A stretch of DNA of 63,860 nt, filler included, from Hausera hauseri (GCA_046269625.1; 12 parts of 12 records of this genome joined end to end with filler, not necessarily neighbours in it); one strand, 5' to 3'. Numbered from the whole stretch's first letter, positions 21,711-63,477 are shown. Program-made: numbers and translations. The notes: generated by a model not told the origin, from the sequence alone.

Positions 21711-21810
21711 NNNNNNNNNNNNNNNNNNNNNNNNNNNNNNNNNNNNNNNNNNNNTTAATTAATTAANNNNNNNNNNNNNNNNNNNNNNNNNNNNNNNNNN
21801 NNNNNNNNNN
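21711..21810. other. Artificial contig linker
   Basis: N44-TTAATTAATTAA-N44. Confidence 0.99.
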
Positions 21811-22610: not shown

Positions 22611-23945
22611 ACAACATCACCCGCCCACGTGGCAAAAAAACAATGTATGGTTAAAAGGAATGATAAAACAATTGCAACAAAAGATTAATGTTTAGTGCCT
22701 ATTTGGTTTTAGTATGTATCAGGTGTTGTGTGCTATCAAGGAACTTTTTCTTGCTGTGGGTACTAAATGTCACTCTGCGTGCCTTACTTGACTGATTTAT
22801 GTTTGGCCGTTGAGCGCAATTGTGTGATAGAAGTTTTGTGAGATTATCTGGTTCAGTGTTTAGTGTTGCATGTGATGAAGATGGTGAAGGTGGTAACGAG
22901 AATGGGTCAAACAAAAAAGGCGATGCAATTAGAGGCGATGAAACAGAAGGCAATGAAGTAATGGAGGTAATTGAGGTGAAGAAAGTGGTGGAGATGATGA
23001 AAGAGAGGGACAGAAAAGTGATTGCTGCAACGGATCAAAGTCATTTAAAAATCTGAGAACGGAATGGAAGGAGTAAGAGTTGAGTTAAAATTAGAGGTAG
23101 AATTGGGATCCGGATTGGCATTAATGAAGAGAGCGGGCTTTAGATTTGATATATAAACGTGGTAAGGTTTGTTTTGGCATAAGATGGTAGCTATATGTGA
23201 TGAGAGACTAAGAAGTTTGTAAGGGCCAGAATATTGAGGTCTAAAACCCGAAGGCGATTAATACTTCAGCCATACAAACTTGGCGGTGTATAAATCCTTC
23301 GGAATGTACGATTTGTTATTGTTGAAGAGGCGGCAGAACGAGTCTGAAATGACCTCGAAGAAATGAGATTGTGCAGCACGAATATTTTCGTCTGTGGGAT
23401 TGTCGTCAAAATCGGAAAGTTTAAATAAAGCCCGAATTGGAGTCCCAAAGAGTGCCTCGGCTGGAGCACAACCAGTAGTGGTTGGGGGTCTGTTGTGCCA
23501 TTCTAGTAGAACAAATGGTAAAATGGACGTCCAATAACGGTGATTGTCAGCCAAGATTTTTAAAGCAAATTTTCATTGTTCGATGGAAGCTTCCAAGGAG
23601 GCCATTTGCTTGAGGATGATATGGTGTTGTATGGAAATGGGATATCCCCCAGCGTTTTATAAGTGATTTGAGGAACTCCGATTCAAATCCGTTATTATGT
23701 AACCTGGGGCACCAAAAGGACTGATCTAGATTTTTATAAAGGCGTCGGTTACTGAATCAGTGTTCGCTGAACGAAGAGGAACGGCTTCATGCCAGCGAGA
23801 AGCACGATCCATCATGGTGAGTATATATTGATACCCGTTGTCAGAAGGTAAAGGGCCAACGAGATCAAGATGAATTGTATGAAAACGTGAGGTACAGGGG
23901 AAATGGTAAAGCGGCGGTTTAAGATGTTTACTGATTTTGTATCTA
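22611..23945 (-). mobile_element. CsRN1-like Gypsy integrase and 3' end fragment (same family as 1474-6688)
   Basis: HLDLVGPLPSDNGYQYIL, GPYKLL, Ser/Pro tail ending RRVTFSTHS; PPT-like GGGCGGG then TGATGTTGT. Confidence 0.88.
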
Positions 23946-26200: not shown

Positions 26201-26300
26201 NNNNNNNNNNNNNNNNNNNNNNNNNNNNNNNNNNNNNNNNNNNNTTAATTAATTAANNNNNNNNNNNNNNNNNNNNNNNNNNNNNNNNNNNNNNNNNNNN
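26201..26300. other. Artificial contig linker
   Basis: N44-TTAATTAATTAA-N44. Confidence 0.99.
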
Positions 26301-30249: not shown

Positions 30250-30349
30250 NNNNNNNNNNNNNNNNNNNNNNNNNNNNNNNNNNNNNNNNNNNNTTAATTA
30301 ATTAANNNNNNNNNNNNNNNNNNNNNNNNNNNNNNNNNNNNNNNNNNNN
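30250..30349. other. Artificial contig linker
   Basis: N44-TTAATTAATTAA-N44. Confidence 0.99.
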
Positions 30350-31850
30350 GTGACGGATCACAAAGCAGTTACAACACTAAAAGGACGAGCTAATAACCCA
30401 ACATGCAGATTAAACCGTTGGATCGACGAAATTTCACGATATAATATTGAATTTCAATACAAACCGAATAACAAGCACGTTGACGCTGATGCACTGTCAA
30501 GGCTAAAAACAAAAACGAGTGCAATCATTACATTAAAGAGACCACAACTTGAACAGCTGATTGAACGACAAAGAACCCTAATATCGGACAAGACGCTTAG
30601 AATGACGGCTGAACAGACTAAAGATACAGTTATTCAGCAGATTATCGAGTTCGTACAAGACAAAAAGATACCGAAAGGACGACATGTGAAAAAGCATCTA
30701 CAGAAGCACGGACATAAATATCATGTATTGGATCAAAATAATATTTTGTATTACAAGCGTAAAGGGAAAAGACTAATTGTACTTATGGCCGAACATGATT
30801 CATATTTAGCCGGACACATGTCTTGGAAGAAGACATTAGAAAGGATATTAAATAAATACTATTGGCCAAGCATCTATATTAATGTAAAGAATTGGGTAGG
30901 AGCATGGGAAGTCTGCGCGACAAAACAAAATAAGACGAAAGGCTACGTAGCAGAATTAAAACTTACAAGTGTACCAGACAGGCCTATGCAAGCCGTGTCT
31001 ATGGACATAGTAAAACCGTTACCAAAAAAACTCACAAGAATAACAGATATATCTTAACATGTGTAGATCAACTCTCACACTTTGTTGAATTGGTGGCACT
31101 GTTAAATCAAAAGGCAGAAACTCTAGCTGACGCAGTAGTTAGGAAAATTATTTGCAGATATTGACCACCAGAACAAATTTTAACGGATAGAGGAAGAAAC
31201 TTTACGAGCGAACTATTTGAAAAAATTACTAAAATATTTGAAATCGAACGTTTAACTACTACCGCGTATCACCCTCATGTAATGAAATGGTCGCGCAGAT
31301 GAACGCAACAGTTATTCGGATATTATCAACAGTAGTGGCAAAAGACCAAACGGATTGGGACTAATTCCTAGAAGTAACACAATTCGCAATCAATACGACA
31401 CCATATCCAGCGACAGGGTTTACACCATTCTTTATGATGTAAGGACGAGAAGCAATCTTACCCCCAGATTTAGACATGACACCCTACGAAAAGAACCTCG
31501 AGGATCTGGAGCAAAACTTTGTTGAAGTTTTGCGGACAAGACTGCAAAAATGTTGGGAAGTTGCAAAAACATTTTCACTTGAATATCAGGAACAAATAAA
31601 AAAACAATATGATAAAAAGACTAAGCCTCATGATCTGCAGAAGGGAAATTGGGTTTATATACATTACCCAGTCGCGAAGAAAGGTACCTCCTCGAAATTA
31701 ACACGTACCGGTAGAGGACCTTATGAAATCATCCGCACCACGCCGACCACGGTCTATGTTAATAAAAATGGTAAAGAGGAAGTCGTATTGATTCAAAGAG
31801 TAGTTAAAACAGATATAAGGCCAGCTAAACACTACAATCTAAGATCATGA
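30350..31850 (+). pseudogene. pol: Ty3/Gypsy pol, RNase H end plus integrase
   Basis: TDHKA, RLNRW, H.DADALSR, HDSYLAGH, YYWP, MDIVKPLP, LTDRGRNFTSELF, TAYHP, GPY, HYNLRS. Confidence 0.92.
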
Positions 31851-35035: not shown

Positions 35036-35135
35036 NNNNNNNNNNNNNNNNNNNNNNNNNNNNNNNNNNNNNNNNNNNNTTAATTAATTAANNNNNNNNN
35101 NNNNNNNNNNNNNNNNNNNNNNNNNNNNNNNNNNN
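35036..35135. other. Artificial contig linker
   Basis: N44-TTAATTAATTAA-N44. Confidence 0.99.
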
Positions 35136-39306: not shown

Positions 39307-39406
39307 NNNNNNNNNNNNNNNNNNNNNNNNNNNNNNNNNNNNNNNNNNNNTTAATTAATTAANNNNNNNNNNNNNNNNNNNNNNNNNNNNNNNNNNNNNN
39401 NNNNNN
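39307..39406. other. Artificial contig linker
   Basis: N44-TTAATTAATTAA-N44. Confidence 0.99.
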
Positions 39407-40250
39407 ATGTAATTTCGTCTTATGTACCCTTGTTGACCGCACACATAGGATATTATGGGTTTTCTTTCCAGACAATTTCTGTTAATATGTCCTTCTTTCC
39501 CGCAACCAAAACATCTTGGTACGTGTTGGAGATTGCATGTCCGGCTTTTATGCCCGTCTTTCTTGCATGACCAGCATTTCATCATCCTCTTTGCATGCGT
39601 ATTGTGCAGTTTGAAATCCCTTCTTTCCTCTCTTGGTTTGGCAAATTTGTGCACTACCACATCCCGATAACTCCATCGACCATCTTTAGTGTATTCTCTT
39701 ACTTAATTTATCTCTTCCGTCTTAGTTGCCATTTCGTGAACTTTCTGTATTTTCGCTTTAATTTGTTTTACGTTTTTTTCGTCACTGCGGTAGATTTCTT
39801 TTCTCATCTCTGGATTGTCACAACGGTGGATCATCAGTTCCTCTGTTAGAGATTCCGCAGTTATTTTGTGGCTGAGGATGCCCTTCACCAGCTGTTCGAT
39901 TTTGTTGTAGGAGGCGGCCGGTTCGGCCCATTCATTCTGTAGTCCAGTGCTTCCCGCAGATCTCCGCACAGCGTTGTGAGTTTTTCAAAGGCTTTTCTCA
40001 ACCAATTTTGATAAACTCTCGCCTTCTGATTCACAAGCTGGTATTTTTCCTGTTCTTCGTCCGCCAACAGGCACAGGACCGCGGTTTCCCGATCCTACTC
40101 CTACATCTTTATGAAGTCGAAGTATCTCTCGCATTTTCCAATAAAGGTTGCCACGTTGTCACATTTTTAGAATTTTTTTGGCATCAAATTCTTCTCGAAG
40201 AAGTCTCTTCAAGCGTGGTTTGCCATGTTAGTAGATCGCGTTTCTACCAT
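39407..40250 (-). pseudogene. gag: Gypsy gag with three CCHC zinc knuckles (third degenerate)
   Basis: MVETRS start at 40250; CWSCKKDGHKSRTC, CFGCGKEGHINRNC, YVCGQQGYIRRNY. Confidence 0.8.
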
Positions 40251-40275
40251 TCCGATCTCAACGTCATTCGATGAT

Positions 40276-40457
40276 TGTATGATTGAACTCTGCATAAGAA
40301 ATTTATTACAAAAGATTTGTATAACAATTATCTCCTTCACTCATTAAATGATTTTTCTTTTCATCTTTTTTGAATTTCCTGACTTTATATAGGCTGTTCA
40401 TTGATTTAACTTTAAATTGAATTTAAACGTTAATATTCGCTTAAATTCCTCCTCACA
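40276..40457 (-). repeat. Probable 5' LTR of the preceding Gypsy element
   Basis: TG...CA ends with internal TATATAA and AATAAA, just upstream of the gag ATG. Confidence 0.55.
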
Positions 40458-41930
40458 GGGGAAAAATGGGGTTCTCCCTCACCCCGGGGGGAGGTAATCG
40501 ACAAAGGAATTTTCACATGTGCCAATTGATAGTGTATGCGGAGCACAATCGATCGGTAGTGTGCCAGACGACGGTGCCGCTAGGCACCGTTTCTAAGCAC
40601 ATTTTTGCACATTTGACAAATCGATCGCTTCACAGCACAGTATTCATCGAATCAATCGGGGCAAAGTGCTAGTCGATAGTGCACATCAGTGACCATCGAT
40701 GAGTGCATTGTACAGGTGTGCAGAAATAAATAATATCGGATTTCCGATAATTCCAGTATTGATGATTACGGCACCGCAACGGGTGCAATCGGTATCACAC
40801 ATGATGAACTGTGCCAATATGCAGTTAGAATTTAAATATACTGATTAATTCTCGAATAATTTCCAACTGAGGAAAAACTCGTATATGCCTTTCCGCTATA
40901 AAATAAAAATCGATAATATCGATCCGCGGCAAGCAGTTGTACGTAGTACACACTGTGAACTACCGATATGGAAATGCTCAAGGTGAAGGTACCTTGGATA
41001 CTGTTGCCAAGGCACTTTTTCTCTTTTTACATATTGGTCACTGGGCAGCGTAGGATTGATTGAATCGATCGGGGTTAAGTGCATGTGGATAGAGCACATC
41101 GAGATGCACCTTGATATACACTATGCAGATGCGCAGCACATGTGCAAGTGTGCAAAAATCAATAATATCGGATTTCCGATATTTCCAATATTGATGATTC
41201 GGACATGTGACCGGATGGGATCGATTGGAAACAAGGTGCAGTATATAAATGTGCAGTTAGAATTTAAATTTATCGATTAGATTTCGAATAATATCGATGC
41301 AAAGTGCAACTGAGAGAGAACCCGCATATGTTTTTAGGCCCTAAGGTAGGAAAATACGATATTATAATTAGCGGGGATAGATAGGAAATCGACTATGGCG
41401 ATCTCGAATCTCGAGTTGGATATACAAAATTCAAAAAATCTTTGGCCCAATTATCGAATATCGAACTATTCGAAAAATCTAACAGCGGAAGTCGATTCCT
41501 CATATATGAAAGCCCCCTTATGCATAAAAATTATTCCATGAAAATGTACTACATAAATATATAATCATTATTTCGAATTAAGCAAAATGTGTTTTTAAAG
41601 CCCAATGAAACGAAAATCAATAAATCTATAAGCGGGACGGGATAGGAAGTCATGTGGGTAGAATTTGAATCTTGTGTTAGATATTTAAATTCGAGCTTTC
41701 AAGTCAAATACTTTGCTATTCGAACTAGAATATTCGATCAAGCATGCATTATTCGAAGAATTTAATGACGTTATTCGATTCCCCATATAGGAAAACCTTA
41801 AATTTGGCGCCGTCTTCTATTTAATTTAATTCATGCAATAAAACAAAAAGCACATTAAACTGATCAATAAGCGAGGCAGTACATGGTGATATGGCAAAAA
41901 ATTTCATTATTTCCAAAACCACTTCAACGA
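40458..41930 (+). repeat. Terminal (TIR-like) non-coding region with about 430-nt and 260-nt internal tandem units and hairpins
   Basis: AATAATATCGGATTTCCGATA...GCAGTTAGAATTTAAA recurs at about 40729 and 41161; AGCGGG..GATAGGAA recurs at about 41370 and 41631. Confidence 0.75.
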
Positions 41931-44900
41931 ATGGCGAGTTTTTTAATTGTGCGCCTCAAAATAATTGGTTGATTTTTAGATGTGCAAACTTCACAGCGAA
42001 TGTTTGTCTCAAATCAGCAAGCCTGAAAATTGCCACAGTATTATGAAAAAGTACTTTGGCCATCTATACAACAGGGTTCAGTATTATATATTAACTACAT
42101 GTAAAGTAGTGTGCCAAACCAATTATGAAGACTTTGACAATGTACATAAACAGCACTTGATTTCCTTCACCAAGTCGAAAAAACAAATATGCAGTACCAA
42201 TATGCCAATAACGACTTTCGTGCCAAAGGAAAATCAAAGATGCAGTTCATATGTGTATTGCACATGTATAATACACAACCCTCAGAATTGCCACAATACC
42301 ATGAGGAGCTATTATGGACACAAATTCAATAGGATCACTTATTATATTTGCTCAGGATGTGAGGCTGTATGTGATGAAGAATACATACAGTTTTATAATG
42401 ATCACAAACATCATTTGACTGACTTCACATAAAAGTCAAAGAAGATCATCTTTAATGAACATAAGCCAGTTGCACAGCCTGTAGTACAGCCAGATGCAGG
42501 GCTAAAACGCGCATCAGGCGCATCAGGCGTAGCGGCTCCAACAAAAAGTCAAAGACAGCGGCCAGTTGATGCTACAGTATTAAAGAGGAAATCTGCAAAT
42601 ATGTCATTGATGCAACTGGTTAAAGAACCATCAAGGAGTTCCTGGAGTACACAGAAGAAGAAACAGAGGGAGTTCTCTAGGACAACATAGTTGAGCTCGA
42701 GGCCATTAAGGCTAATATGAAATTGGAGGCCACATACATCAATGTTGATGACGAAGAGTTCAAAAGTGCCTTCAAGACCACAAGTAGACCCATTTTTGAA
42801 GCCACCAATATAGTAGAATGGTTGCATGAAGAGCATGCAAAGCTGAACCGTGAAGCCGATGACAGCCAGAGTAAGAAGAACGGATGGACTCTGGCAACCG
42901 TCAAGAGATTGCTTGTGTATGTTCACGAGTATTCTCCCATGAGGGGTAGTTCATATATCTAGCTTCCGGAATGGATCGCTAAAAAAGCATGTGTCAATGT
43001 CCATGAAAAAGACAACAAGTGTTTCATGTATGCCATTTTACGTAAACTCGTACGGGATCAAAAACATGCAGCAGTACTATGACTTCCAATGTATTAAGTT
43101 CCCTCCATCCTTAGATAAAATTAAGAATTTCAGCCGAATCAACAACATATCCATCAGCATCATTGGATTGGATGAGGAGGACAAATTCTATCCCTTGCAG
43201 ATATATGATACTGAATTGGAAGATCATATGGATCTGCTCCTATTAGACGATAGAGAAAAGAAACATTATGTTTGGATCAAGAACTTTAAGCGTCTAGTCA
43301 CATCCAAAATTACGAAACATAAGGAAAGAATCGAAATATGTAAACGATGCTTTTCCAATTTGAGTGGGGATTCAGCAGTGGATAAGCTTGCAGCGCACAA
43401 GATGTACTGCAGCAACAAATACTGTGTGAGGGCAGAATTTCCCAAGGAAGACTATATTGCATTCATGGAGTTCGAGAAGAAGATCAAGGTCCCAATATCT
43501 ATTGCAACTTTGAAGCTATTCGTCGGCCAATTCACAGCTGCACTGCCAGTCCTCAACATAGCGGCACAACGGCATACCAATATCATGAACTCTCATCGTA
43601 TTGCATGTATGCCAAAGGACTAGACAATGAATCATTTCTATTCAGGGTCCAGGCGCAGCAGCACATTTTATGAAACGACTTGAAGATATGGCTCATAGGC
43701 TTGAAAACATGCTTCAGCAGCATAAGGAAACATTGAGCATGTTGTGAAAACAAGCAGAAGAATGGCGCAAGGCAACAACATGTTACTTGTGCGACAAGTC
43801 CTTCATCAAGGAGAATCATAAAGTTAAGAATCACTGCCATTTTACAAGTGCACATCGAAGGGCTGCATGCAATAACTGCAATCTTCGCCGCAAAACATGC
43901 ACATATGTGCCTGTAGTGTTCCATAATCTCAGTGGCTATGATTTCCATTTCATAGTCCTAGAATTAGGCAACATTAATAATAATATAGATGTGATAACCA
44001 ACAGTGAGGAGAAATATATCGCCTTCACCAAGTATGTTGGGAAAATCAGACAGCTTCCGTTTCATGTCGTCTTCATTGGACAGTTTAACGAAGAACGTCC
44101 CTGCAAAAAAACTCAAGGAGACGAAGCGATTCTTTTCCATTACCTTTGACCTCGTTAAGAAGAAAGGCGTGTTTCCCTATGACTATATAACCTCATGGGA
44201 AACACTGGATGAGACTTCATTGCCGGCCAAGAAGGACGTTTACAATATCCTCTCTCACTGCGATATCTGTTATGCTGACTACCATCATGCCCAGAACGTC
44301 TGACATGCATTTCAATGCCGAACAATAGGACAATACAGCGACACATACATCAAGACGGACGTGCTGCTTCTGACAGATGTCTTTGAGAGTTTCAGAGATG
44401 TTACAATGAAGAACCATGCTTTGTATCCGGCTCATTTCTTTACGGCTCCAAGAATGAGCTAAGCAGCAATGCTGCGATATACGGGCATAATGCTGCAGAT
44501 CATTAAGGATTACGACATGATCCTTATGATCGTGGGAGGCATTAGAGGCGGAATATGCCAGGACATTCACCGGTATAGTGAGGCCAATAACAAGTATATG
44601 GCCGAATACTACTCAAGAAAAGAATCATCATATATATCATACCCGGATGCCAACAACTTGTATGGATGGATAATGGGCGCCCCATTGACATATGATAATT
44701 TCAAATGGGTCCAGAATCCCCAAAACATCCCTATATTGGACCTAGATCCCACTGGAGATACGGGATACATACTGGAGGTAGATATGGAATATCTGGAATT
44801 TATCCACGCAAAGCATCAACAGCTACCTTTCCTCCGTGAGAGCAGGCCTCCGCCCCATGGAAAGCAGAGAAAACTGCTATGTCATCTGGGTAATAGGGAG

Positions 44901-45581
44901 AGGTATGTAGTCCACTACATCAATCTCCAGCAGGCAGTTAGACATGGACTGCGTATTACCAAGATCCATAGAGCCCTCCAGTTCAGCCGCCCATGTGGCT
45001 GCAGTCATACATAGATCTCAATACGNNNNNNNNNNAACGACTTTGGGAAGGACCAGTTCAAGCTTTACAACAACCTGGTCTTAGGCAAGACCATGGAAAA
45101 TATCCGCAACAGGATCAACATTAAGCTAGTATGTGACTGGAAGCGGGCAAAGAAGCTTATTGCCAAGACTAACTTGCATAGCAGCACCATATATACTGAG
45201 AACTTGGTAGGAATCCATATGCTGAAAACAGAATTGGTATTCAACGAGCGCATATATGTGGGTATCGCAATCCTCGACCTGTCAAAGACCCTGATGTGTT
45301 ATTTCCACTACATTATGGTCCCCAAGTACAATTCCATGCATCTGATGTATATAGATACTGGCAGTTTTATCTATCAGATCAATACAGAGGATATTTATGA
45401 GTAATTTGCCAAATTGGCTTAACACATGGATATCTCGGACTATGCGAAGGATAATCCCAACTATTCAATTGCCAATAAGAAAGTCCTAGAGAAATTTAAA
45501 GACGAAATGAATGGGACAATACGATCGAGATTAGTGGCTCTCAGATCTAAAATGTATGTTGTACATGTATGTGGCCAAGGA
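41931..45581 (+). pseudogene. Protein-primed DNA polymerase B (tandem Cys/His domain, terminal-protein-like region, vOTU-like, exonuclease with EndoVII-like insert, polymerase)
   Basis: GSSYI.LP, DNKCF...HYVWIK, NHCHFT...CNNCNL, FHNLSGYD, KGVFPYDY, DANNLYG, KLYNN..LGKTMEN, YIDTGS, KFKDE, LRSKMY. 10-N scaffold gap at 45026-45035. Confidence 0.92.
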
Positions 45582-45681
45582 NNNNNNNNNNNNNNNNNNN
45601 NNNNNNNNNNNNNNNNNNNNNNNNNTTAATTAATTAANNNNNNNNNNNNNNNNNNNNNNNNNNNNNNNNNNNNNNNNNNNN
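45582..45681. other. Artificial contig linker
   Basis: N44-TTAATTAATTAA-N44. Confidence 0.99.
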
Positions 45682-45896
45682 TCACTCAAGGAATGAATAT
45701 CCAGATTATATCCAGAAATGTTCCGTTCTCCTCTGTACTGGAGGATCTCATCTCAGTGCATGGACTCCGTAGTTCGGAGAGAACCTCCCTTCATGGTAGA
45801 TTTTAATTAGAATGTTCCTAGTGCAGCGGTCGCTAGATTTCTTCCTAATCAGGAGAATTAATTAACAGAACAACAAAAAGAAAAAAAGAGAGAAAA

Positions 45897-45979
45897 GGCT
45901 CACTCAGCTTGCAGTGAGATTCGAACCTTAGACCAACATCACCAGAGGTGGACACCATACCTCGAGACTACTCAGCCCC
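45897..45979 (-). ncRNA. tRNA-derived Pol III unit (SINE head or tRNA pseudogene)
   Basis: GGGGC start, A-box-like TAGTCTCGAGG, B-box GGTTCGAATC, then T-runs; cloverleaf incomplete. Confidence 0.5.
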
Positions 45980-46020
45980 GTGATCAATAATCAGCCTCTA
46001 AAAAGGATCCATTTACTAAC

Positions 46021-46092
46021 CTTCTGTAGTTGTCAGATTTATTGTTTTATTACAGTCTTCTGTAGTTGTCAGATTTATTGTTTTATTACAGT
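46021..46092. repeat. Perfect 36-bp tandem duplication (DCNKTINLTTTE x2)
   Basis: cttctgtagttgtcagatttattgttttattacagt occurs twice in tandem. Confidence 0.95.
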
Positions 46093-46386
46093 CAATGTCG
46101 TATCCACCTGCGTCTTGTATCTTAAACTGAATGGCGTACGATATTTTCGGTTGTAATCCAAAGACTGTAAAATTCATTGACTTTGACAGGAAGATTGTAT
46201 ATTCAAGCTTGGAAACGGACGCCATGCATGTGAAAGACGAGCTTTTTCTATTGGTACAGTTGCTGATGGGGTAGAGTGTCATCATGACTGAACTTCTGAC
46301 TTCACCAGGTTCTAAAGAGAGCGTCGTGGCATTATGTGACGCTGAGATTATCGTGGCATTAACCGGGCAACTTGGCAGCGCAGAAT
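46021..46386 (-). CDS. Fibronectin type III domain exon (phase 1-1) of a host cell-surface protein
   Basis: ttcAG|ATTCTGCG...GAAG|GTtagt, 366 nt; PSCPVNATI...FTVFGLQPKISYAIQF; many N-glycosylation sequons. Confidence 0.65.
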
Positions 46387-46542
46387 CTGAATTATTAAAA
46401 ACGAAATGATAAGCTTAGAGTTAAATGCACATTAAGTATAAGATTCAAAAACATTTAAATAGTTGACACATAATAAGAATATTCTATTTCTCATGACAGC
46501 ATACTTGTTTCTTCTAGCTTTTATCTCTATTTTAATTTTAGA

Positions 46543-48621
46543 ATGCTGTTTTCCAAATATTTCCAAATTACAAAACATTTCGTCAAACGTAACTTTATTC
46601 ATTTACCGGTCAGTATTTCAACCGATGTTCAACATGCAATATTCAACAAAAATCCAATTGTAGCTTTGGAGAGTGCCGTGATTACTCATGGGATGCCATG
46701 GCCAGAGAATTTCGAAATTGCAATGGAATTGCAAAGTATAATTTCATCAAAAGGTGCTACACCAGCAACAATCGGAGTGTTACATGGGAAATTAAAAGCC
46801 GGATTTTCTACACATGAACTGGAACTATTTTCCAAATCTGTAATAACTGGAAAACCACTAAAAGTATCACGACACAACATTTACAATCATAAGCAAATGG
46901 AATTTGGCGGTACTACGGTATCTGGTACAATGATTGTTTCCAGACTTATTGGAATAGATATTTTTGCTACTGGGGGAATTGGCGGTGTGCACAGAAACGT
47001 GGAAAAAACAATGGATATCAGTGCTGACTTACGGGAACTTGGAAGGTCCCAAATCTGTGTCGTTTCATCTGGTATTAAATCAATTCTGGACATTCAGAAA
47101 ACATTAGAATATTTGGAAACAGAAGGGGTTTATGTTTGTACTTTAGGATCGAAAGAATTTCCCGGTTTTTTCGTAAAGTCTAGCGGACTGGTATCTCCAA
47201 ATTCGATTTATTCATTGCAGTCGGCTGCCGAATTAATTCAAGAAATGAAGACCTTAAATATCCAATCAGGTATGTTATTGGCTGTTCCAATTCCGGATAG
47301 TTTGGAAAAAAATGGCGAGGTTCTTCAAAATTCAATTGATATAGCTTTGAAAGAAGTCTCAGAAAAGAAAATTTGTGGAGCGGCTGTAACGCCTTTTCTC
47401 TTAAATCGAGTAGTTGAATTAACAAATGGAAAATCACTGATACTGAACAAAAGTCTTCTAAAGCATAATTCTGCAGTTGCAGCAGATATCGCCATTGAAT
47501 TAAGCAAAGTAACTAAGGAAATCTATACAGAAAAATTACGGGAAAAAACATTTGCAGTTGTTGGAGCTAGTATTTTAGACACGAATTCAAAGCTTGAGGA
47601 TCAATCGGTAACTTCCTTACAGACGATTGTCAAAGGAGGAACCTATGAATGTAATTCAATTGAAACATGTGGAGGAGTAGGACGAAACATGGCCGAAACG
47701 TTTTCAAAACTGGGCGAGAACTGTCTATTTTATTCAGTAATTGGAAATGACATCAAAGCAATTTATCTCATTGAAAATTCAAAACCCTTGGATTTTCAAT
47801 TTGTATTACGGGATAATGAACATGGTACATCAAATTGTACAGTAATAATGCTTGCTAATAATGATGTTCTTCTCCACACAGGCAATCTGAAATCATGCAG
47901 TAAAATAACACCAACCTACCTCGACACGAATATGGCAAAAGTACTCGACAAAATTGATATAATTGCCATGGATTTGAATGTGAATAAAAGTACATTGAAA
48001 TACATTATCGAAATGGCCAAATCAAGAAATATCAAGACAATACTGGAACCAACCGATGTACGACTAGTTCATAAAGCGGTGGACGTGATTCTGGAACTAT
48101 CACCGACTATTAACGGACCAATAGATATTATTTCTCCGAATATTTACGAATTCGTCGAAGTCATTAATTTGTTGGGTAAAAACAAAACGAATCTCATTTT
48201 GGAAAACGTCGAAACCCACCCGGATGATGTGTTTGCACAAATAAAAAGTACGTTTTCACAAACAAATCTGTTAGACATTATTCCCATTTGGATCATAAAA
48301 TTCAATCGATTTGGGATCATTTTCGTGTCAAAGGATGAATCGTTTTGGTTACGGCAATCGTCGTCTCTAATACAAAACAACATGATAGTGAGTGCATCTG
48401 GTGCCGGTGACTGTGCACTCTCCTGTGCAGTCTATTTGCGATATAGACAGAATCTATCGTGGGAAGAAAGCATTGCCGGGAGTATAAGAATTGCTCTGGA
48501 ATCGCTACAAAGTTCTAAAACGGTACCAGAGTCGATTAAGCCAGAAAACTATTCTAAACCACAAATTTTAGAGTGGATTCGAGATTCTTACAATAAGAAT
48601 GTGATAATTCTCCATAAATAG
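46543..48621 (+). CDS. Bifunctional pseudouridine-5'-phosphate glycosidase (PsuG/IndA) - pseudouridine kinase (PfkB) fusion, 692 aa
   Basis: VALESAVITHGMPWPEN, TTVSGTM, FATGGIGGVHR, DISADLRELG; PfkB motifs GGVGRN and SGAGDC. Intact and intronless. Confidence 0.95.
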   Translation: MLFSKYFQITKHFVKRNFIHLPVSISTDVQHAIFNKNPIVALESAVITHGMPWPENFEIAMELQSIISSKGATPATIGVLHGKLKAGFSTHELELFSKSVITGKPLKVSRHNIYNHKQMEFGGTTVSGTMIVSRLIGIDIFATGGIGGVHRNVEKTMDISADLRELGRSQICVVSSGIKSILDIQKTLEYLETEGVYVCTLGSKEFPGFFVKSSGLVSPNSIYSLQSAAELIQEMKTLNIQSGMLLAVPIPDSLEKNGEVLQNSIDIALKEVSEKKICGAAVTPFLLNRVVELTNGKSLILNKSLLKHNSAVAADIAIELSKVTKEIYTEKLREKTFAVVGASILDTNSKLEDQSVTSLQTIVKGGTYECNSIETCGGVGRNMAETFSKLGENCLFYSVIGNDIKAIYLIENSKPLDFQFVLRDNEHGTSNCTVIMLANNDVLLHTGNLKSCSKITPTYLDTNMAKVLDKIDIIAMDLNVNKSTLKYIIEMAKSRNIKTILEPTDVRLVHKAVDVILELSPTINGPIDIISPNIYEFVEVINLLGKNKTNLILENVETHPDDVFAQIKSTFSQTNLLDIIPIWIIKFNRFGIIFVSKDESFWLRQSSSLIQNNMIVSASGAGDCALSCAVYLRYRQNLSWEESIAGSIRIALESLQSSKTVPESIKPENYSKPQILEWIRDSYNKNVIILHK

Positions 48622-49373
48622 ACTTACGTTTTGTTTCAAATTACTCCTCATTTGTAAAGTAATATTATTGTTTGAATTTGTGTATGTATCTTAAGAATAC
48701 TGCCATGCAGAATTTTGTAGATATCACAAAGAAAAACCTTAAGCAAATTAGAAAAAACCATACATTAATTTATAATTTGGAATGTACATTATACTGTCAC
48801 CCTATGGGACACATTTTTGTTCATTACATGGAGCCCTCCATAGAGAAAACGTCTGTTATATGGCACGTTGTTAATATTGTAAAGGTTATTCAAATTATAG
48901 ACTAAATCGTATAGACTGAAGTAAAAGTCACCATTATTTAAATTTACAAAAATGATTAAAATGTTGTAATATCGTATTGTTAAAGATTTTTGTGCATTTA
49001 CTGGTAACAGCCAATTAAATTTGATAGATAATCCTGATTAGTTCTCTAGGTAATCATCGCTTCCGTTTAACTACTTTTCACAGTTTTAATACATTATAAA
49101 ACTGTGCTGATCCAGACTTTGTCACATGACCAGTTCTAACTCACAAGGAAACGAATTTTGGTGTAAATTTGGATTTTTAATAAATAGTCAGAGAGATGTG
49201 CAAAATATAATGCGGATTAATAATGTGAAAAAACGTTTGCCAAGAAAGCTAAAGTAATACATTTGGAGCCTTTAAATATAACAGCATTTCGTACTAGTTC
49301 AAATCTCCACTATGTTTAAGAATTTTGAACTTTGGCAAAATTTTCCTTATTTTTATCTAGGTATATGAAATTA

Positions 49374-51898
49374 AGAGGAAAATATACCGTCTTCCTCACG
49401 CACCTGGGAGGATAAATCGATAAATCGATATTGGACATGTGTTAGTCGACAGTGCACTCGCTGCACTATCGGTCGGCGCACGTGCATGGCGACGGTGCCT
49501 TTAGGCACCGTTGCCATGGCACATTTGCACTTTGCACATATTGATCGATCGAGGTAAAGTGCTCATCGATAATTCATATCAGTGCACATAGATTTATGCA
49601 CAATGCACTTAAGGAGCACATGTGCAAATGGGTGCAAATGGGTGCAAATTAATAATATCGGTTTTCCAATAATTCCAATATTGATGATTAGCACAAGGCA
49701 CCGCAGGCAATCGATTGGAAAAACGGTGCACTATACAAGCGTGCAATTAGAATTTAAATCCATCGAATGGTTTTCGAATAATATTGGTTTGAAAATTTAG
49801 TCAGGGAGAAAGTACGTAGGTTTTTAGACTCTAAGGAAGCAAAATTCGACAATACATTAAGCGGAGACAGATAGGAAACCATGTATGGAGATTTTAAATA
49901 TAACATCAGATATTCGAATTCGAAAAAAGTTTTGACCGAATATCGAACTAAGCACTATTCTAAACATCTGATTACATCATTCGATTTCCTTTGTTCTAAA
50001 ATCTATGAAAAATTTAAATTATTCAATGAAGATGTACTATATAGTTATAAAATCATTAAATCGAATTAAGCAAAATGCACATTTTATGCTCAATGAAGCA
50101 GAAATGGAAAAATGTTTAAGCGAGTTTGGATAAGAAACATTATATTCATAATCCGAATCCGATGTCACATATTCGAATACAAGTTTCCAAATCGAATATT
50201 TAGCTATTGGAACTCGAAAACTCGGTCAAGCATATATTGTTTGAAGAATCTGACCTATAATGAAATCGAAATTGGCACTGTGCAGCACTGTTTTCAATTG
50301 AAAAGATCAAATTTGGTGGCAAGTTCATGTAATTGATGCAATAAAACAAACTGTTCTAGAATATTCGAAAATCAAATTTTTAAAATCAGTAAAATCAAAA
50401 TTTGAATTTAAAAAATCTATAAACGCCGCAATGTGCGTTGACATAGCTGTATATTTTATTATTTCAGAAATCACTTCCAAGAATGGTGAGTATTTTAATT
50501 GTGCTTCTCAAATAATTGATCTATTTTTTAGACTTGCAAATTATACAAAGATGTTATATTTCAGTCACCTTTCAACAGGACTGAATACTATCTATGTCCT
50601 ACAAGCGAGATAGGGTGCCTAACTTGTTATGAGGACTTCTACAATGTCCATAAACAACATATGACTTCCTTTACCAAGTCGAAGAAACAAATATTCAATA
50701 CGAATATGCCTATGATATCTTACATTTCTCAGAAAATTTAAAATAGCAGTTCATACATGTATTGCACATCTGCAATACACAATCTGCAGAACTGTCATTA
50801 TACAATGCAGCGTTACTGTGGACACACATTTAACAGGATCGAATATTATATTTGTCCAGGATGTGAAACTGTATGTGATGCAGAATACATGCAGTTTCAT
50901 GAAGATCACGGCTCATTTAAGAGAATTCAAATGAAAGTCCAAGAAGACCATCTTCAATAAGCACCATAATCTTGTTGCTGCAGCAGCACAACAGGTTCCA
51001 AATACAGTACAGCCAATTCCAGGTGCAGTGCAACTAGTTCCACACACATGATTAAAACGTACAGCGGCATACTGGTATTAGACTGCAGATCTTGAAGGAT
51101 TATGATATGATCCTCATGGTAAAGAGAGGTATTAGAGATGAAGTATGTCAGACTATGCACCGGTATAGTGAAGCCAGTAACAAGTACACGGCCGAATAAG
51201 ATCCATCCAAGGCATCCTCATATATTACCTACTTGGATGCCAACATAAAGCCTTAAGATGACTTTAAATGGGTAGATCATTTAGAAGACTTAGCAATACA
51301 ATATGTAGATCCCAATGGAGATACAATCTACATAATGGAGTGGATGTTTAATATCCATATAATACGCATACAAAGCATGGACAGCTGCCTTTCCTCTCTG
51401 ATAGCAAGCAGCCACCTAATGATAAACATAGAAAGCTACTCTGCCATATGGAGAAAAGGGAAAATATGTAACCCGCTATATCAATCTCCGGTAAGCGATA
51501 AAGAACGGACTCTGCATCACAAAAATCGATTGGGCCCTGCAGTTTAGCCAGTGCATGTGGTTGAAACCTTACATGAACCTCAATACACAGCTGCGGGCCA
51601 GTGCCAAGAACGATTTCGAGAAAGATCAGCTTAAGTTATACAACAGCAGCGTTTTTGGCAAGAGTGGGAAAATATCCGGAATAGGATCAACATCGAGTTT
51701 GTATGTGAGTAATGCGAGCCAAAAAACTCATAACCAAGACGAACTTCCGCCGCAGTATAGAGACCTGGGTCCGGATCAATATGCTGAAGACATCTTTCAA
51801 ATTCAATAAGCCATAATATGTGTATGTCGATACTAGACTTGTCAAAGACCATGAAGTACCACTTTCACAACCACATTCAAGACTCAACAGCTTATGTA
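49374..51898 (+). mobile_element. pPolB element copy 2, internally deleted
   Basis: Homologous terminus 49374-50482, ATG-intron, Cys/His domain (50757-50960), then a jump to polymerase motifs (YLDAN, KLYNSSVFGK, ILDLSKT). Confidence 0.82.
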
Positions 51899-54800
51899 AG
51901 TAGGAAGAAAATGGCGGTTCGGTCCCACCCCCGCGGAGGGTGTGCCAAAACGATATTTTACATGTGCCAATCGATAGTGCACATAGAGCACTATCGATCC
52001 ATAGAGTGCTAGACACCGTTGCTAGGGACACTTTTGCACTTTTGACAAATTGATCGCTGCACAGTGCAGTATTGATCAAATTGATCGGGACAAAGTGCAA
52101 ATCGATAGTTCACATCAGTGCGCATCGATTTGTGTACCTTACAGGTGTGCAGCACATGTGCAAGTGCGCAAAAATCAATATTATTGGATTTCCGATAAAT
52201 GCAATATTGATGATTAGCACTCCGCACCGGGTGAAATCGGTAGTCCGTGTGATGCTGTATGTGAATGTGCAGTTAGAATTTAAATCGATTGATTGGTGTT
52301 CGAATAATTCGCAAGTGGAACAGAACAGCCACAGGCCTTTTCGCTATAAATTTTAAATCAATAATATCAATATGGTACATATACTGGCAGGTGCAGTACT
52401 TGATGTACTATCGTTCAGTGCAGTACTCGAGTGTGGTGTTCTCTTGGATACGGTTGCCAGGGCACTTTTTTACTTTTTACACTTTTGCAGTTGTGCAGCG
52501 TAGGAGTGATAGAATTGATCTGAGTCAAGTGCAGGTGGATAGAACACATCGAGATTCCCCTTGATAAATGGCCTGCAGTGCAAAAACATGTGTGCAGATG
52601 TGCAAAAATCAATAATATCGAATTTTCGATATTTCCAATATAGATTATAAGGACATGTAACCGGGTGCATTCGAATGGAAACATGGTGTAGTATATGAAT
52701 GTGCAGTTAGAATTCAAGCTTATCGATTGGTTATCGATTTAGATTAATCTAAAGGGTAAAATGGCCTACTTTCAATAAATTTTTTAAGCCGTTGGGAAGC
52801 AAAAATCGATATGACATTGAGAGGGACAGATAGGAAATCGACTATTGCGAGATCGAATTTCGAGTCTTTAATTCGAAATTCGAATAATTTTTGGCTCGAA
52901 TATCGAATATAGAAATATTCGAAAAATCTTACAGCGGGAATAGATTTCTCGTATTCAAATACCCTTATGTACATATAAAATATTTCATGAAAATGTACTA
53001 TATAGGCGTAAAATCAATTTTTCGAATTAAGCAAAAAGTGCATTTAAAGCGCAGTGAAGCGGAAATCGATAAATCTAATAGCGGGCTGGACAGAAATTTA
53101 TATATGCCGATTCGGAATATGGCATCGGGTATTGGAATTCGAGCTTACAAGTCGAATACTTGGCTATTAGAACTCGAAAGCTCGGTCAAGCAAGCACTAC
53201 TCGAAGAATCAGATGACGGCATTCGATTCGTCATTGTCGAAAACCTTTATGGCAATCAAAATTAGTGCGATGCATGACATTTCAGTGTATAAAAACAAGG
53301 TTTCTTAAATATGCTAAAAGTTCTTGTTAAATGCTAAGTAATTCTTATATTGATTAAACAATTGTGTTGATTTTGAAGGTGAAGCACATTGAAATCAATA
53401 AATCTTTAAGCGCAAATGGATAGAAAAGCATATGTGAAGAAGCCGACTCTGGTGTCAGATGATCGAATACATTATTAAAACTCGAAGAAATATCGAATCG
53501 AACTCGAATATTCGGTTAAGCAAGCATTATTCGAAGAATCTGATGGCTTTAATCGATTCCGCATATATAAAAACCGAATATAGAGCCGCTACATATTTAA
53601 AATCATTTGATGCATTAAAACAATGACAAGCAATATAATAATTACGTGACAAGTTCATGCATTTGATGCATTAAAACAAAACGCGTGATGTTGACAACAC
53701 AACATATTGCCAACAATATGCAGTGCCAAAATTTACCCCCACCATTAAAATTATTTCATTAAATCTTTTTGTTTTACTGCATCAAATATCAAAATTAGGC
53801 AGTGTAAGTTGACATAGCTATATTTTTTATTATTTCCAAATTCCCTTCTGAGAAATGGTAAGTTCTCTTATTTGTGTTCATCAAATAATTGCTTTGTTTA
53901 GATGTGCAAACTACAGAGAGTGCTTGGCTCCAATTCATGAGCCTGATGTTGCCATAGTATTATGATGAAATACTATGGGCATATGTTCAACAGGATACGG
54001 TATTATATATGCCCTACATGTGAGGTAGTGTGCAGGACAGTGTACGAGGAATTTTACAACGTACATAAATGACAACTGATATCCTTCGTCAAATCGAAAA
54101 AATAAATATTCTATGACAATATACCCACAACGTCTATTGTGTCAAAACAAAAGGTGCAGTTCATATATGTACTGCACATGTACAATACATAACCCCGAGA
54201 ATTGCAACAATACCATGAGGATCTATTATGGCCACAAATTCAATCAAATCCTTTATATTTTTCCTGGATGTGAGACTGTATGTGATGGCGAATGCATACA
54301 GTTCTATGAAGATCATAAAGATCATCTGACTAACTTCGCATCAAAATCCAAAATCATATTTAATGAGCATAGGCCAGTTGCACACTACGCAGTGCAGTCC
54401 AAAGTACAGTCCGCAGTGCAGTCCACAGTACAGTCCGCAGTACAGCCCGCATGAATAAAACGCCAATAAGGTCCATCAGATGCCTCAGGCTCAACAGGCG
54501 TAGCGGCTTCGCCAAAAAGCCAATAACAGCGACGAGTTGATGCTGCTGCATTAAAGAAAAAACTCTGCAAATATGTCATTGATGCAAATGGGCAAAGGAG
54601 CATGAAGGAGTTCCTGGAATATGCAAAGGAAGAAACTTAGGGGATCCTCCAGGACAATATGACTGAGCTCAAGGCCCTTAAGGTTAATATGAAACTTGAG
54701 CCCACATCCGTCAATAGGGCCTTCAAGACCAAAAATAGTCCCATATTGGAAAGCATAAATATAGCTGATTGACTGCATGAAGAGCACATGAAGCTGATCC

Positions 54801-54992
54801 GTGAAGCCGATGAGAGCCAGGATAAGAGCGGATGGGCTCTGGCAACCATCAAGAGAGTGCTTATATATGTACACAGATACTCCCACATGCGAGGCAGTTC
54901 ATATATACAGCTTCCGGAATGGATTCGGCAGAAAAATGCTTGTATCAATGTCCATAATAATGACAACAAGTGCTTCATGTATGCCATTTTAT
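51899..54992 (+). mobile_element. pPolB element copy 3 (terminus plus 5' part of the polB gene)
   Basis: Begins AGTAGG; terminus 51899-53854; Cys/His repeats; SGWALATI...RGSSYIQLPEWIRQKNACINVHNNDNKCFMYAIL; cut by the contig end. Confidence 0.87.
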
Positions 54993-55092
54993 NNNNNNNN
55001 NNNNNNNNNNNNNNNNNNNNNNNNNNNNNNNNNNNNTTAATTAATTAANNNNNNNNNNNNNNNNNNNNNNNNNNNNNNNNNNNNNNNNNNNN
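54993..55092. other. Artificial contig linker
   Basis: N44-TTAATTAATTAA-N44. Confidence 0.99.
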
Positions 55093-57817: not shown

Positions 57818-58450
57818 TCATTCATACATTTTGCATTCGTTCATACATATAAAATAAATATTGCTAGTTGTTAAACGTGCGAGTGCCATGTCAAATGTCG
57901 GTCTGTCGTTGGTCTTAAAATTGTGTTCTGTTACATGTTCTATACCGGCCCTCTCAGTGCGTAGGTGGTGCAGTCGCTTTGGCATATTCTTGAGTTCTTG
58001 ATTTAGTGGAATAATCATTGGTATTATTATCGAATCTTTTACTGTCATGCGATTTACTTTTACTCCACTTGATTTTTTTAAATCTACATTCGTCTGAAGC
58101 TTATTTTCTATTGATTCACTTTCTATTTTACTCGCATACATTGTGCAGGCTGTAGCAAAGACGTCATATCTTGTGTTGGTACAACAAAGTGGAAAGTTAC
58201 TGATATAAAATGAAAAAAGCAAGGACCCGAGGATACAACCTAGAGACACACCGGATTTTATGGTGGTGCTCTCAGATATCCAAAAATTATACCAACGATT
58301 TGCACGTGTTTGTCTGAAAGAAATGATTAAAAATATGTTACCAATATGGCCCGGATTAAAACTTTCAAATGTTTGCAAAAGGACGCCATCGTCAGCCATA
58401 TCGAAGGCCTTCATCAAGTCAATAAGCACAATACCACACATCTTAGCGTG
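57818..58450 (-). mobile_element. CR1/L2-like LINE reverse transcriptase fragment
   Basis: IDLMKAFD, SGVSLGCILGSLLFSFYISN (degenerate GVPQGS motif), degenerate FADD. Confidence 0.75.
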
Positions 58451-58454
58451 GTCT

Positions 58455-59634
58455 TCTTTTTCTTCTTCTCATTCGCTGTTGTTTAATGTTGTCTACACAA
58501 GTAACCCAGTTTCCTGGATGAATGTTGCAGTCTTGGTGAGTTCATCTGTGCTTCCATACAGCTTAGAGTGGACTGGTGTTTCTGTTGGCCAGTGTACAGT
58601 TCTCAGTTGAGTGAACATATGACAGTCCTGTAGAACATGTTCAACTGTCTGTGCTGCCTGTTTACATATACACAGGGGCGAGGGTACTAATTTCAGCCTA
58701 TGCAGATGATTGTTCATTCAATTGTGTCCTGTTCTAAATCGGAGCAGGATCATCTGTCCTTCACGATCTAGGTAGTGGTAGTTGTCATTATATTGATGTA
58801 TCCTCCTGACAGTCTTGATAAGAGTCTTCTTTTCATTGAAGGTGATAATTTGTCCTTCCTGCTCTTTCTTTGCTCCTTCTTTAGCTAACATATCATCTTT
58901 TTCATTGCCTGGTATACCACAATGAGCTGGTATCCACTGCAGCACTACTCTTTTGTTGCTGTTCACTTCATGGAGGTTATTATACTGAGTCCAGGAAGCT
59001 GATCCCATGGACTTGGGAAGAGTGTTGGGGATATTTCTGTTGTGATGTCTGGTAAGTCTTCCTTATACAGCCTACTCTGTCTTTTGGAACAATGTACGAA
59101 GCTGCTTCTCTTCAATCTTCCACTAGCTAAATCTTCGAATCTTGTTTTCATTGGATGTGAGTGCATGCTCTTGTACTTTTCTGCATGGATCAAAGTCTTA
59201 GTGTCTCGTCTGTAGGATAGGGGTGGAACACATGTGATTTTTTCCATTTCACGTATTGGAGTGGACTTCATGGCACCAGTGATCAGCCTCAGGGCTTGGT
59301 TTTGTACTTTGTCCAAGGCTTGTAGATGCGATTTGGCTGCAGTCGACCATGCTGTTGATCCATATTCTATCACTGGCCTTATAGCACCTGTTCAAAGTTT
59401 TTTAAGTATCTTTTCATTGGCTCCCCAATTTGATCCAGCTATTTTTCTCATAATGGCAAGTTTTCTCCTTGCTTTTGCCTCTATTTTCTCAGTCTGGGGT
59501 CTCCATGTCATCCTCCTATCAAACTTGATGCCTAAATAAACTGGTTCCTCATCTACCGGGACATTTGTATTTCCAAGTTTTATTTCCCTTGCCTTGTCTT
59601 TGTTTGAGAGCGTGAAGAGTGTTGATGAGGATTT
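58455..59634 (-). mobile_element. I-group (Ingi-like) non-LTR retrotransposon 3' part with RNase H and CCHC domain
   Basis: YLGIKFD..MTW, EYGSTAW, QNQALRLITGA, LQWIPAHCGIPGNE.AD-like motif, RFRTGH, C.C..TVEHVLQDC; GAA-rich 3' tail inserted next to the CR1/L2 fragment. Confidence 0.85.
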
Positions 59635-59734
59635 NNNNNNNNNNNNNNNNNNNNNNNNNNNNNNNNNNNNNNNNNNNNTTAATTAATTAANNNNNNNNNN
59701 NNNNNNNNNNNNNNNNNNNNNNNNNNNNNNNNNN
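59635..59734. other. Artificial contig linker
   Basis: N44-TTAATTAATTAA-N44. Confidence 0.99.
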
Positions 59735-62074: not shown

Positions 62075-63477
62075 GTTGATAATGATCAAAAAACAGTTGC
62101 AAATAGTATGATATATGGTGTTAATTGAAATTTCATTCGTTTGACGATAAGTGCCAAAACCAAACATGTAAATGACGTGGCAAAATCATAAGTTTCGGTC
62201 TGTTATTTAGTAGGTAGCCACAACCGCCACAATAATCACCTTCCGCTCCAACAATGGAATCACATACTCGGGTGCAATTCTTCCTCCTCCTCAGTATCGT
62301 GCCAAAGTACAGTGAAGCATGATATCAAAATTATTAATCCAAGACACATAAGTTCAATAATGTATGGTACACCTATCATTTCTAGGGACTTAATATATTC
62401 GTCTAATGACAACCAACGAAATCCTTCGTAACACAAATATAAATTAACATGACAGTCGTTAGATGCCCATAGTCCAAATTTTGCTAGAAATTTTAGCATG
62501 TGCACATCATCATGGGGAAAAATATACTTCATTAGTCGTTGCAAGAGAACTGAAAATACCAGACGAAGAGTACCTTGAAGACTTAACCAAGTTATTCTAC
62601 CGGAAAAGCTTGATTGCGTCATTTCTGGTGACTTAAGCATCCGAAAAATCAATGAAATAACAATAAATGATAGCAGAATGGATGCTATAGTCATAATGTT
62701 AAATGATTGTAGAAAAGAAACTCTAATGAAACTGAAGAGGGCAGTTGAGTAATAAAATTTCACTCAATCCGAATATATAAACTCGAAACTTTCAGGACAA
62801 AATACACACCAAGCTTCCGTGAAAATAATAATTGGACTAAATTTCCATTGTATACAGGATAAAAACGTTGACAAGAAAAACAATAATCGAGTAAAGTTTT
62901 GATAATTGAAATTGGTGAGAACGTGAAATGTTAAAACATGTAGCCACAAAAAAGGAAATGAAAAATTTTCACGTATATTTAGAACATGTTACTCGAGATA
63001 TGCCATGCCTGATAAGAGCAAAGAATCCAACTGATAACAGACCGGATAGAAGGAATTATTTAAAAGTAACGATAGAAGGAATATTGAAGCTATGGTCAAT
63101 CCTTGAATAGTTAGCACGCAGTAAACATAGAAATTGATAGGAGAAATGGTAAATTTCAACGCTGACAAAATCCGAAACGAAATACCAAACATAATTTCCT
63201 GCCAAATATTCATCCCTTTAATGACGTTGATTTCGTCTGGATATTCAGTCATATTGTTAGAGAGCAGAACACGGAATGCATCAAACAAATTATTGGCTTC
63301 TATAAATTCCTGAAAATAGGAATAATAAAGTCCTTGTTCGGTTCGCAGAGAAATAAGCTTTTCCACATCGGATATATTGGTCCACCACAATTCAGATTCA
63401 CGACAAAAATATAAATAAATGGAGTAGCCAGCGCTAAGTAGAATTACTAATGGTGTTAGAATTAACGGCGAATACAT
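62075..63477 (-). pseudogene. DPY19L: DPY19-like C-mannosyltransferase, frameshifted and 3'-truncated
   Basis: ISLRTEQGLYYSYF, NMTEYPDEIN, RENFSFPF, QWKFS, DDVHMLKFLAKFG, LALIVKRMKFQLTP; several frameshifts and stops. Confidence 0.85.

Follow-up and report, generated by a model that had tools for sequence, protein, structure and literature searches.

Kapitonov and Jurka reportedly set out a panhandle model of Polinton replication in 2006. The cis-acting signals of these Maverick-type elements (origin, packaging signal, promoter) have been little dissected. Mavericks are 13-25 kb long, are bounded by TIRs and target-site duplications of 5-8 bp, and encode an rve integrase, capsid proteins, a packaging ATPase and a protease beside the polymerase. 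TIRs are described as 46-1,447 bp long in vertebrate Mavericks and 100-1,500 bp in general (PMC8502044, PMC8097293, bioRxiv 10.1101/2023.08.22.554363), and one account gives (AG)3 or (AGT)2 as the ends of vertebrate Mavericks and calls their intact ORFs intronless (PMC8097293). HNH insertions in the pPolB2 polymerase are described in bioRxiv 10.1101/2023.08.22.554363 and PMC11071308. At the left end of adenovirus, redundant packaging A-repeats are described between the ITR and the E1A promoter, in pairs 21 bp apart (PMC5033970), and the DRE (TATCGATA) is described as bound by the BED-finger protein DREF/ZBED1 in promoters of fly DNA-replication genes (PMC7471704).

Here we analysed a window (the whole stretch of 63,860 nt) in which three decayed and mutually diverged Maverick-like copies each open with a non-coding array of 1.1-2 kb. 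An abundant, modular, motif-rich end joined to a finger domain without a name makes this a concrete case of such signals. The window consists of 12 short contigs joined artificially by 11 linkers of the form N44-TTAATTAATTAA-N44, so that it is not one locus and adjacency across each linker is artificial. Of the three copies, the first is on contig 39407-45581 and the other two share contig 45682-54992 (Table 1). All copy counts refer to the window.

Table 1. Coordinates of the linkers and of the features of copies 1-3, counted along the window; all splicing is predicted from sequence
Feature	Position	Strand	Remarks
Linkers 1-6	7847-7946, 12370-12469, 16827-16926, 21711-21810, 26201-26300, 30250-30349
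Linkers 7-11	35036-35135, 39307-39406, 45582-45681, 54993-55092, 59635-59734
LTR-like end of unrelated retrotransposon	40229..40457	-	adjoins first base of copy 1
Copy 1 non-coding array	40458..41930	+	tip, A1, A2, B1, B2, promoter-like proximal segment
Copy 1 A1	40491..40901	+	outermost unit; dyads H1 40525-40553, H2 inner stem 40571-40590, H3 40734-40749
Copy 1 A2	40906..41327	+	H3 dyad 41164-41183; H1 and H2 degenerate
Copy 1 B1	41332..41585	+	TCGA-rich, without folding signal
Copy 1 B2	41593..41860	+
Copy 1 ATG (41931-41933) and predicted 46-nt GC-AG intron	41931..41979	+
Copy 1 two tandem ~65-aa Cys/His zinc-finger-like domains	41980..42432	+
Copy 1 broken pPolB with endonuclease-VII (HNH-type) insertion	42576..45581	+	reaches contig end
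Copy 2 array	49374..50482	+	tip AGAGG, single A (49411-49818), B1 (49822-50073), B2 (50082-50351)
Copy 2 41-nt fold-back	49482-49522		within copy 2 array
Copy 2 ATG and predicted 46-nt GT-AG intron (50486-50531)	50483-50531	+
Copy 2 two Cys/His domains	50532-50957	+
Copy 2 ATG-intron-Cys/His-pPolB	50483..51897	+	internally deleted, ending where copy 3 begins
Copy 3 array	51899..53854	+	tip AGTAGG, A1 (51945-52349), A2 (52354-52776)
Copy 3 A1 perfect 11-bp dyad	51970-51998		H2 lacks its left arm in copy 3
Copy 3 B units	B1 (52782-53034), B2 (53043-53318), B3 (53371-53629)	+
Copy 3 ATG and predicted 44-nt GT-AG intron (53858-53901)	53855-53901	+
Copy 3 two Cys/His domains	53902-54454	+
Copy 3 ATG-intron-Cys/His and pPolB N-terminal region	53855..54992	+	to contig end

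Element copies, their boundary and their gene

The array had been proposed as the terminus of a pPolB element. Only a few bases separate the points at which homology between the copies sets in on the left (40457/49374 in the comparison of copies 1 and 2, 49364/51893 in that of copies 2 and 3). The flanks beyond are mutually unrelated: copy 1 adjoins an LTR-like end, copy 2 sequence downstream of a host gene, and copy 3 the interrupted copy 2 polymerase. The left boundary of the array is thus likely to be the end of the element. An inverted copy of the array was absent from the window, in which contigs are short and the far ends lie beyond the assembled sequence. The tips read GGGG (against the LTR-like end), AGAGG (AGAGGA) and AGTAGG in copies 1, 2 and 3, a partial match to (AG)3/(AGT)2 in copies 2 and 3 and none in copy 1. 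We also observed a short C-rich/G-rich dyad near the tip in both copy 1 and copy 2, 15-35 nt inward (40458-40500, 49374-49410), and a longer C-rich/G-rich dyad 10 nt inside the end of the TIR of a related locus (L021:11-72).

The sequence adjoining copy 1 is presumably the LTR of a retrotransposon, its landmarks being a TG start at 40457, TATA at 40384-40391, AATAAA at 40302-40307 and a CA followed by TGG; no second LTR was found in contig 39407-45581. On the minus strand, 39407-40457 consists of this LTR-like segment of ~230 nt and a gag-like gene with three zinc knuckles, and the segment is covered by many contigs of runs X1-X4. We considered the upstream gag-like gene as part of the element and rejected this, because the flanks of copies 2 and 3 differ and the segment has LTR landmarks.

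About 750 nt upstream of copy 2 lies an intact host gene, a pseudouridine-5'-phosphate glycosidase/kinase fusion in a single ORF (46477-48621), with named relatives across animals at 32-42% identity and one relative at 50%. A quick tree placed it on a long branch beside cestodes with support 96, possibly by long-branch attraction. The host is, to judge from this gene, a fast-evolving animal. Other host genes in the window are ataxin-2-like (15065-16369) and Dpy19-like (62260-63483), and retrotransposon pol fragments (RT, RNase H, integrase) occur at 2006-7305, 23119-23942, 30302-31850 and 57818-61383, with an inverted duplication in one retrotransposon region (4750-5366 / 6689-7305).

All three arrays end at a conserved ATG, followed in each copy by a stretch of 44-46 nt with splice donor and acceptor signals. 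Next come the two Cys/His domains, which are likely to form the N-terminus of the pPolB protein. Over the fragment searched, the polymerase of copy 1 is 44-54% identical to PF03175/PF02945 proteins.

The Cys/His domain has 11 relatives among 1.84 billion representatives, and the clusters of the seven relatives examined supplied no name for them. It occurs in one to three copies per protein (P0241-P0259) and has eight ligand-like positions; in P0246 the sequence behind it is weakly similar to the N-terminal region of pPolB (E 0.005). No Pfam family was common to more than 2 of 13 members, a comparison with PDB sequences gave two rows at chance level, a word search among longer proteins gave no match and the Atlas yielded none usable. 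The domain was likewise absent from the related pPolB loci described below, from 120 pPolB matches and from viral contigs and prokaryote genomes (0 loci), and the titles and abstract openings retrieved in literature searches mention neither a Cys/His-fused pPolB nor a TCGA array. A structural model (pLDDT 70) predicts a helix and a beta hairpin together with a finger of the CxxC...HxxH type. Its likeness to C2H2 and BED fingers was weak (Kaiso, Foldseek best, E 0.68; Serrate/ARS2, Z 3.7, rmsd 4.6 over 53 aligned; ZBED2, Z 2.1), and none reached E <= 0.001 or Z >= 5, which implies neither a new nor a different fold.

A search with pPolB recovered 103 related loci, 23 of them viral and 80 metagenomic. 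The other genes of five relatives were scanned (L007, L015, L021, L063, L095): rve integrase and A32/IVa2 ATPase are present in all five, PLA2 in three and a double-jelly-roll match in one, a gene set that fits the description of Alpha adintovirus/Polinton group 2 (PMC8502044). TIRs are visible in four related loci, and in two of these, L021 and L095, the first long gene after the left TIR is pPolB. The ends of these two loci hold duplicated blocks without TCGA excess, those of L095 possibly a nested insertion. We further observed that L095 (L095:1-780 and the right end) has AGTAGT ends and terminal repeats with TTAGGG runs, the number of blocks differing between the ends.

The element contigs in our window end within or just after pPolB. 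Integrase-like matches fall on other contigs and are mostly retrotransposon pol, and a search of the window with 567 ORFs of related loci gave no clear match to capsid, packaging ATPase or protease (two weak, unexplained ones), the contigs being too short for these genes. The element would appear to work like a Maverick, its membership resting on the polymerase and the layout. The family is very abundant, given the contigs of four sequencing runs that together cover all 30 bins of 39407-45581 at a likeness of at least 80%: they number 113,849 in run X1, possibly the source of the window, and 5,919, 1,040 and 973 in the other runs. Depth of run contigs does not equal copy number and does not rank parts of the element, and the high value at 41055-41260 was left out of account.

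BLASTN of the arrays against the 103 related pPolB loci gave no match, and the array motifs, searched as DNA patterns, had no matches in metagenome contigs, viral contigs or prokaryote genomes. With a related array absent beside all 103 loci, the array is lineage-specific. This would also be expected of an independent satellite or MITE that sits beside pPolB here and mostly occurs without it, an outcome that the preliminary description had named as grounds for abandoning its view. We regard it as very improbable. All three arrays lead into the same ATG, intron and zinc-finger/pPolB region, no free-standing unit occurs in the window, and no inverted ends bound the arrays themselves, where the exact matches extend to 6-9 nt at most.

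Repeat units and palindromic sites

The five sequences quoted in the preliminary description were all found where it had placed them, and its two unit types in copy-variable number were borne out, with A offsets of 414-435 nt and B offsets of 260-330 nt. A units (~415-435 nt; n=5) number two, one and two in copies 1, 2 and 3, and B units (~260-330 nt; n=7) two, two and three, in the order A1-A2-B1-B2, A-B1-B2 and A1-A2-B1-B2-B3, respectively. Shorter periodicities of 131, 147 and 31 nt can also be traced. Identity between units of the same name in different copies (A1-A1 76%, A2-A2 71%, B1-B1 68-76%) is higher than between neighbours of one type (A1-A2 57-64%, B1-B2 44-58%), indicating that the A and B duplications predate the split of the copies. 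The single A unit of copy 2 is like A1 in its first half and like A2 in its second, in line with recombination between units. Among the joints listed for contigs of run X1 there are skips of 425-444 nt or ~295 nt and back-steps of one unit; these agree with a variable unit number and, at 80% likeness and with short sides, may instead be between-unit mis-mapping. In copy 3, we observed an extra segment after B3 (53605-53787), possibly a small insertion; it is marked by two identical 20-nt stretches in direct orientation (53604-53623 / 53660-53679) and an inverted partner of 21 nt at 53767-53787.

The reported saturation with palindromes proved correct for all four motifs when compared with 200 dinucleotide shuffles of the three arrays. 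TCGA occurs 28, 20 and 37 times in copies 1, 2 and 3 (7.5, 5.4 and 9.0 expected, an excess of about four-fold), ATCGAT 9, 5 and 10 times (~1 expected), TTCGAA 5, 5 and 7 times (0.7-1.0 expected) and TGCA 18, 16 and 27 times (7.7, 7.3 and 13.8 expected); none of the remaining 4-mer palindromes tested in this way showed an excess of similar size. TCGA density is 18-19 per kb in the arrays and 3.3 per kb elsewhere in the window, and B units are as rich in the motif as A units. Both flanks are A/T at 60 of the 85 TCGA sites. TCGA has a z of 6.1-9.6 in the three arrays; across 474 windows from the 103 related pPolB loci, the top palindromic 4-mer reached z 6.0 and TCGA at most z 4.4.

Some spacings are frequent among the TCGA sites. 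Pairs 21-23 nt apart number 5, 4 and 10 in copies 1, 2 and 3, compared with 1.8, 0.9 and 3.2 under jitter; after look-elsewhere correction p is 0.04 for copy 3, 0.61 for copy 1 and 0.34 for copy 2, the copies being non-independent. The spacer of H1 is fixed in length at 7 nt and variable in sequence. Farther downstream, by 131-147 nt, another TCGA pair has a spacing of 23 nt in copies 1 and 3 with non-complementary inner arms, and TCGA sites 7 nt apart are present in B units as well.

Observed/expected CpG is 1.15-1.35 in most kilobases of the array, ~1 across much of the window and 0.45-0.68 in the polymerase regions (42000-46000, 51000-52000, 54000-55000). We rejected CpG decay as an origin of this pattern, since the CpGs of TCGA are mostly retained (38/58, 22/36 and 22/38) and it is the polymerase region that is CpG-poor. 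A reading as heat-shock elements was also rejected, with GAAnnTTC or TTCnnGAA present just 1-2 times per copy.

Turning to constraint, the arrays differ by 24-29% (24.5% between copies 1 and 3, 27.4% between copies 1 and 2), while third codon positions of the adjacent gene differ by 28-44% (28% between copies 1 and 3, 34% and 44% between copies 1 and 2). Second positions differ by 14-20%; in the polymerase of copies 1 and 2 they changed by 17%, well below the 44% at third positions, which indicates that the coding regions diverged under selection. Aligned TCGA sites are retained in 17/28, 9/18 and 9/17 cases against a background of 0.36, 0.29 and 0.25 (p 0.007, 0.045 and 0.013 in three copy comparisons that are mutually non-independent), and by retention TCGA ranks 3/57, 7/32 and 4/25 among frequent 4-mers, high and never top. 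In these alignments the array appears to be about as conserved as third codon positions, or better, with TCGA retained above background, although the edge over third positions is small between copies 1 and 3 (24.5% vs 28%), and identities in non-coding alignments are inflated by the way gaps are placed.

These figures weigh against a passive origin, in which duplications at the end undergo unequal exchange, TCGA richness is inherited from a short ancestral repeat and the sites have no function. Such a history would be compatible with the free variation of unit number, the traces of shorter periods, the 7-nt TCGA spacings within B units and the end repeats of L021 and L095, which show no TCGA excess. 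We nevertheless consider it improbable, because the A1/A2 and B1/B2 identities have been kept across lineages 28-44% apart at third codon positions, TCGA lies above background in all three comparisons and the H3 block is near-invariant in all five A units.

Folding and covariation

The arrays had been characterised as dense in hairpins with compensatory changes. The first point was borne out in part: perfect stems of at least 7 bp exceed dinucleotide shuffles in copies 1 (5 vs 1.4) and 3 (9 vs 2.3) and not in copy 2 (2 vs 1.5), and they exceed 4-mer shuffles in copy 3 only. Excess folding is limited to A units and is mostly attributable to TCGA/GTGC/GCAC content. The outermost A units of copies 1, 2 and 3 have folding z of -2.9, -6.6 and -5.5 against dinucleotide shuffles and -1.5, -2.6 and -2.2 against 4-mer shuffles. 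Against 4-mer shuffles, the two A2 units score -1.2 and +0.8, none of the seven B units falls below -0.8 (top strand), and one of five control stretches, in the adjoining gag region, reaches -2.9.

The positions of the hairpins were conserved in part. The stems of 8 bp inside the hairpins at 40571 and 49492 match, and being identical in sequence they carry zero covariation; the stem at 51970 lies at a different position. As for compensatory changes, the G-C to A-T double change between 41164-41183 and 52614-52633 is genuine, and covariation as a whole was not above shuffles. Each of the two changes in this H3 pair creates TCGA in one arm, so that motif preference is enough to explain it. Across the named stems, 5 of 43 pairs show double changes, a number reached by 62 of 500 shuffles (mean 3.0 +/- 1.3), and 84.3% of cells in the three named dyads pair, compared with 82.5% in shuffles (43 pairs, 5 units; 22 of 500). 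RNAalifold penalised A and B units alike in its covariation term (A +9, B +1.04). With five A and seven B units, from decayed copies, the power of the covariation test is low. Among top-strand stem cells, G-T outnumbers A-C 24 to 9, and 9 to 4 (p 0.13) after manual removal of shared states and of the degenerate H1/H2 rows of A2.

These results bear on the idea that the outermost A unit acts as single-stranded DNA, the displaced strand folding into a row of hairpins that would serve as an origin, integration or packaging signal. The excess of G-T over A-C and the folding of the outermost A units, which is better than in either type of shuffle, lean towards it, as do the proportion of named-stem cells that pair and the one clean double change in H3; moreover, some broken pairs could be damage after insertion, the copies being decayed. 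We judge this reading unlikely, if worth keeping in view, given that double changes stay within the range of shuffles, that H3 gains a TCGA with each change, that H2 has no left arm in copy 3 and is degenerate in both A2 units, that the gag-region control folds equally and that B units do not fold.

A structured non-coding RNA templated by the units, also put forward in the preliminary description, was not supported. Local hairpins in A units and the slight top-strand G-T excess would suit such an RNA, but Rfam gave no match at gathering score over the whole window, the covariation terms are penalties and B units are unstructured. The four sequencing runs listed as carrying the sequence include none of RNA, which has no bearing on expression. 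We consider it extremely unlikely.

A candidate cis-control region and its counterparts

Taken together, the alignments and motif counts indicate that the array is a genuine feature, constrained and lineage-specific, of a probable Maverick end. The anatomy given in the preliminary description holds, and its claim of covariation does not as yet. That B units are TCGA-rich without folding, and that spacing is fixed where inner arms are non-complementary, points to sites rather than stems. Of the earlier suggestion that pairing or dyad symmetry is under selection, an array of dimeric sites at a Polinton end fits best, and selection on base-pairing was not upheld. We think it on balance probable that the array is a left-end cis-control region of a Maverick, built from redundant, putatively double-stranded TCGA dyads that would bind protein, in a layout like that of adenovirus. 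End functions, as a protein-primed origin or in integration or packaging, would fall to the outer A units, whose dyads have spacers of fixed length; the inner B units may act as promoter or enhancer of the spliced zinc-finger-pPolB gene, and unequal recombination between units would change their number. Candidates for the binding protein are the tandem Cys/His domain of the element itself or a DREF-like protein of the host with a BED finger.

Among described elements, the likeness is closest in kind to the TIR or subterminal region of Mavericks/Polintons (alpha-adintovirus, group 2/pPolB2). Both have a PF03175-type pPolB with an HNH/endonuclease-VII insertion, whose gene reads inward from an end without coding sequence, and two of the three tips here start with AG. 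The arrays, at 1.1-2.0 kb, reach or exceed the longest Maverick TIRs in the published range, and they differ from the 103 related loci in having the TCGA excess and the tandem Cys/His domain, both absent there.

The DRE shares with the array the palindromic core ATCGAT upstream of a DNA polymerase gene. Within the window, 24 of 34 ATCGAT and 13 of 17 WATCGATW fall inside the arrays. In contrast to the DRE, TTCGAA and ATCGAA are also common in the array, and the quick tree places the host outside the insects. The exact 8-mer TATCGATA occurs nowhere in the window; given this and the non-insect host, DREF specificity cannot be assumed.

The adenovirus left end, the nearest functional model, resembles the array in that redundant repeats fill the space from the genome end to the first gene, with spacer length fixed and sequence free. 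A pairing of sites at about two helical turns (21 bp there, 21-23 nt here) may be a further likeness, one that passes the look-elsewhere correction in copy 3. The A-repeat consensus TTTG-N8-CG itself was not found as a feature of the arrays (0, 0 and 1 matches in copies 1, 2 and 3), and the sites here are palindromic and lie in a region several times longer, made of 260-430-nt units. We can also imagine, though we rate the chances as low, that the tandem Cys/His finger fused to pPolB reads the TCGA dyads, so that polymerase and origin would co-evolve as a private lock and key. If the fingers do not bind the dyads, the array would be an ordinary, lineage-specific Maverick end; if they do, the array would show a transposon telling its own ends from those of other families, and the candidate Cys/His reader would take the place of the host factors that adenovirus uses.
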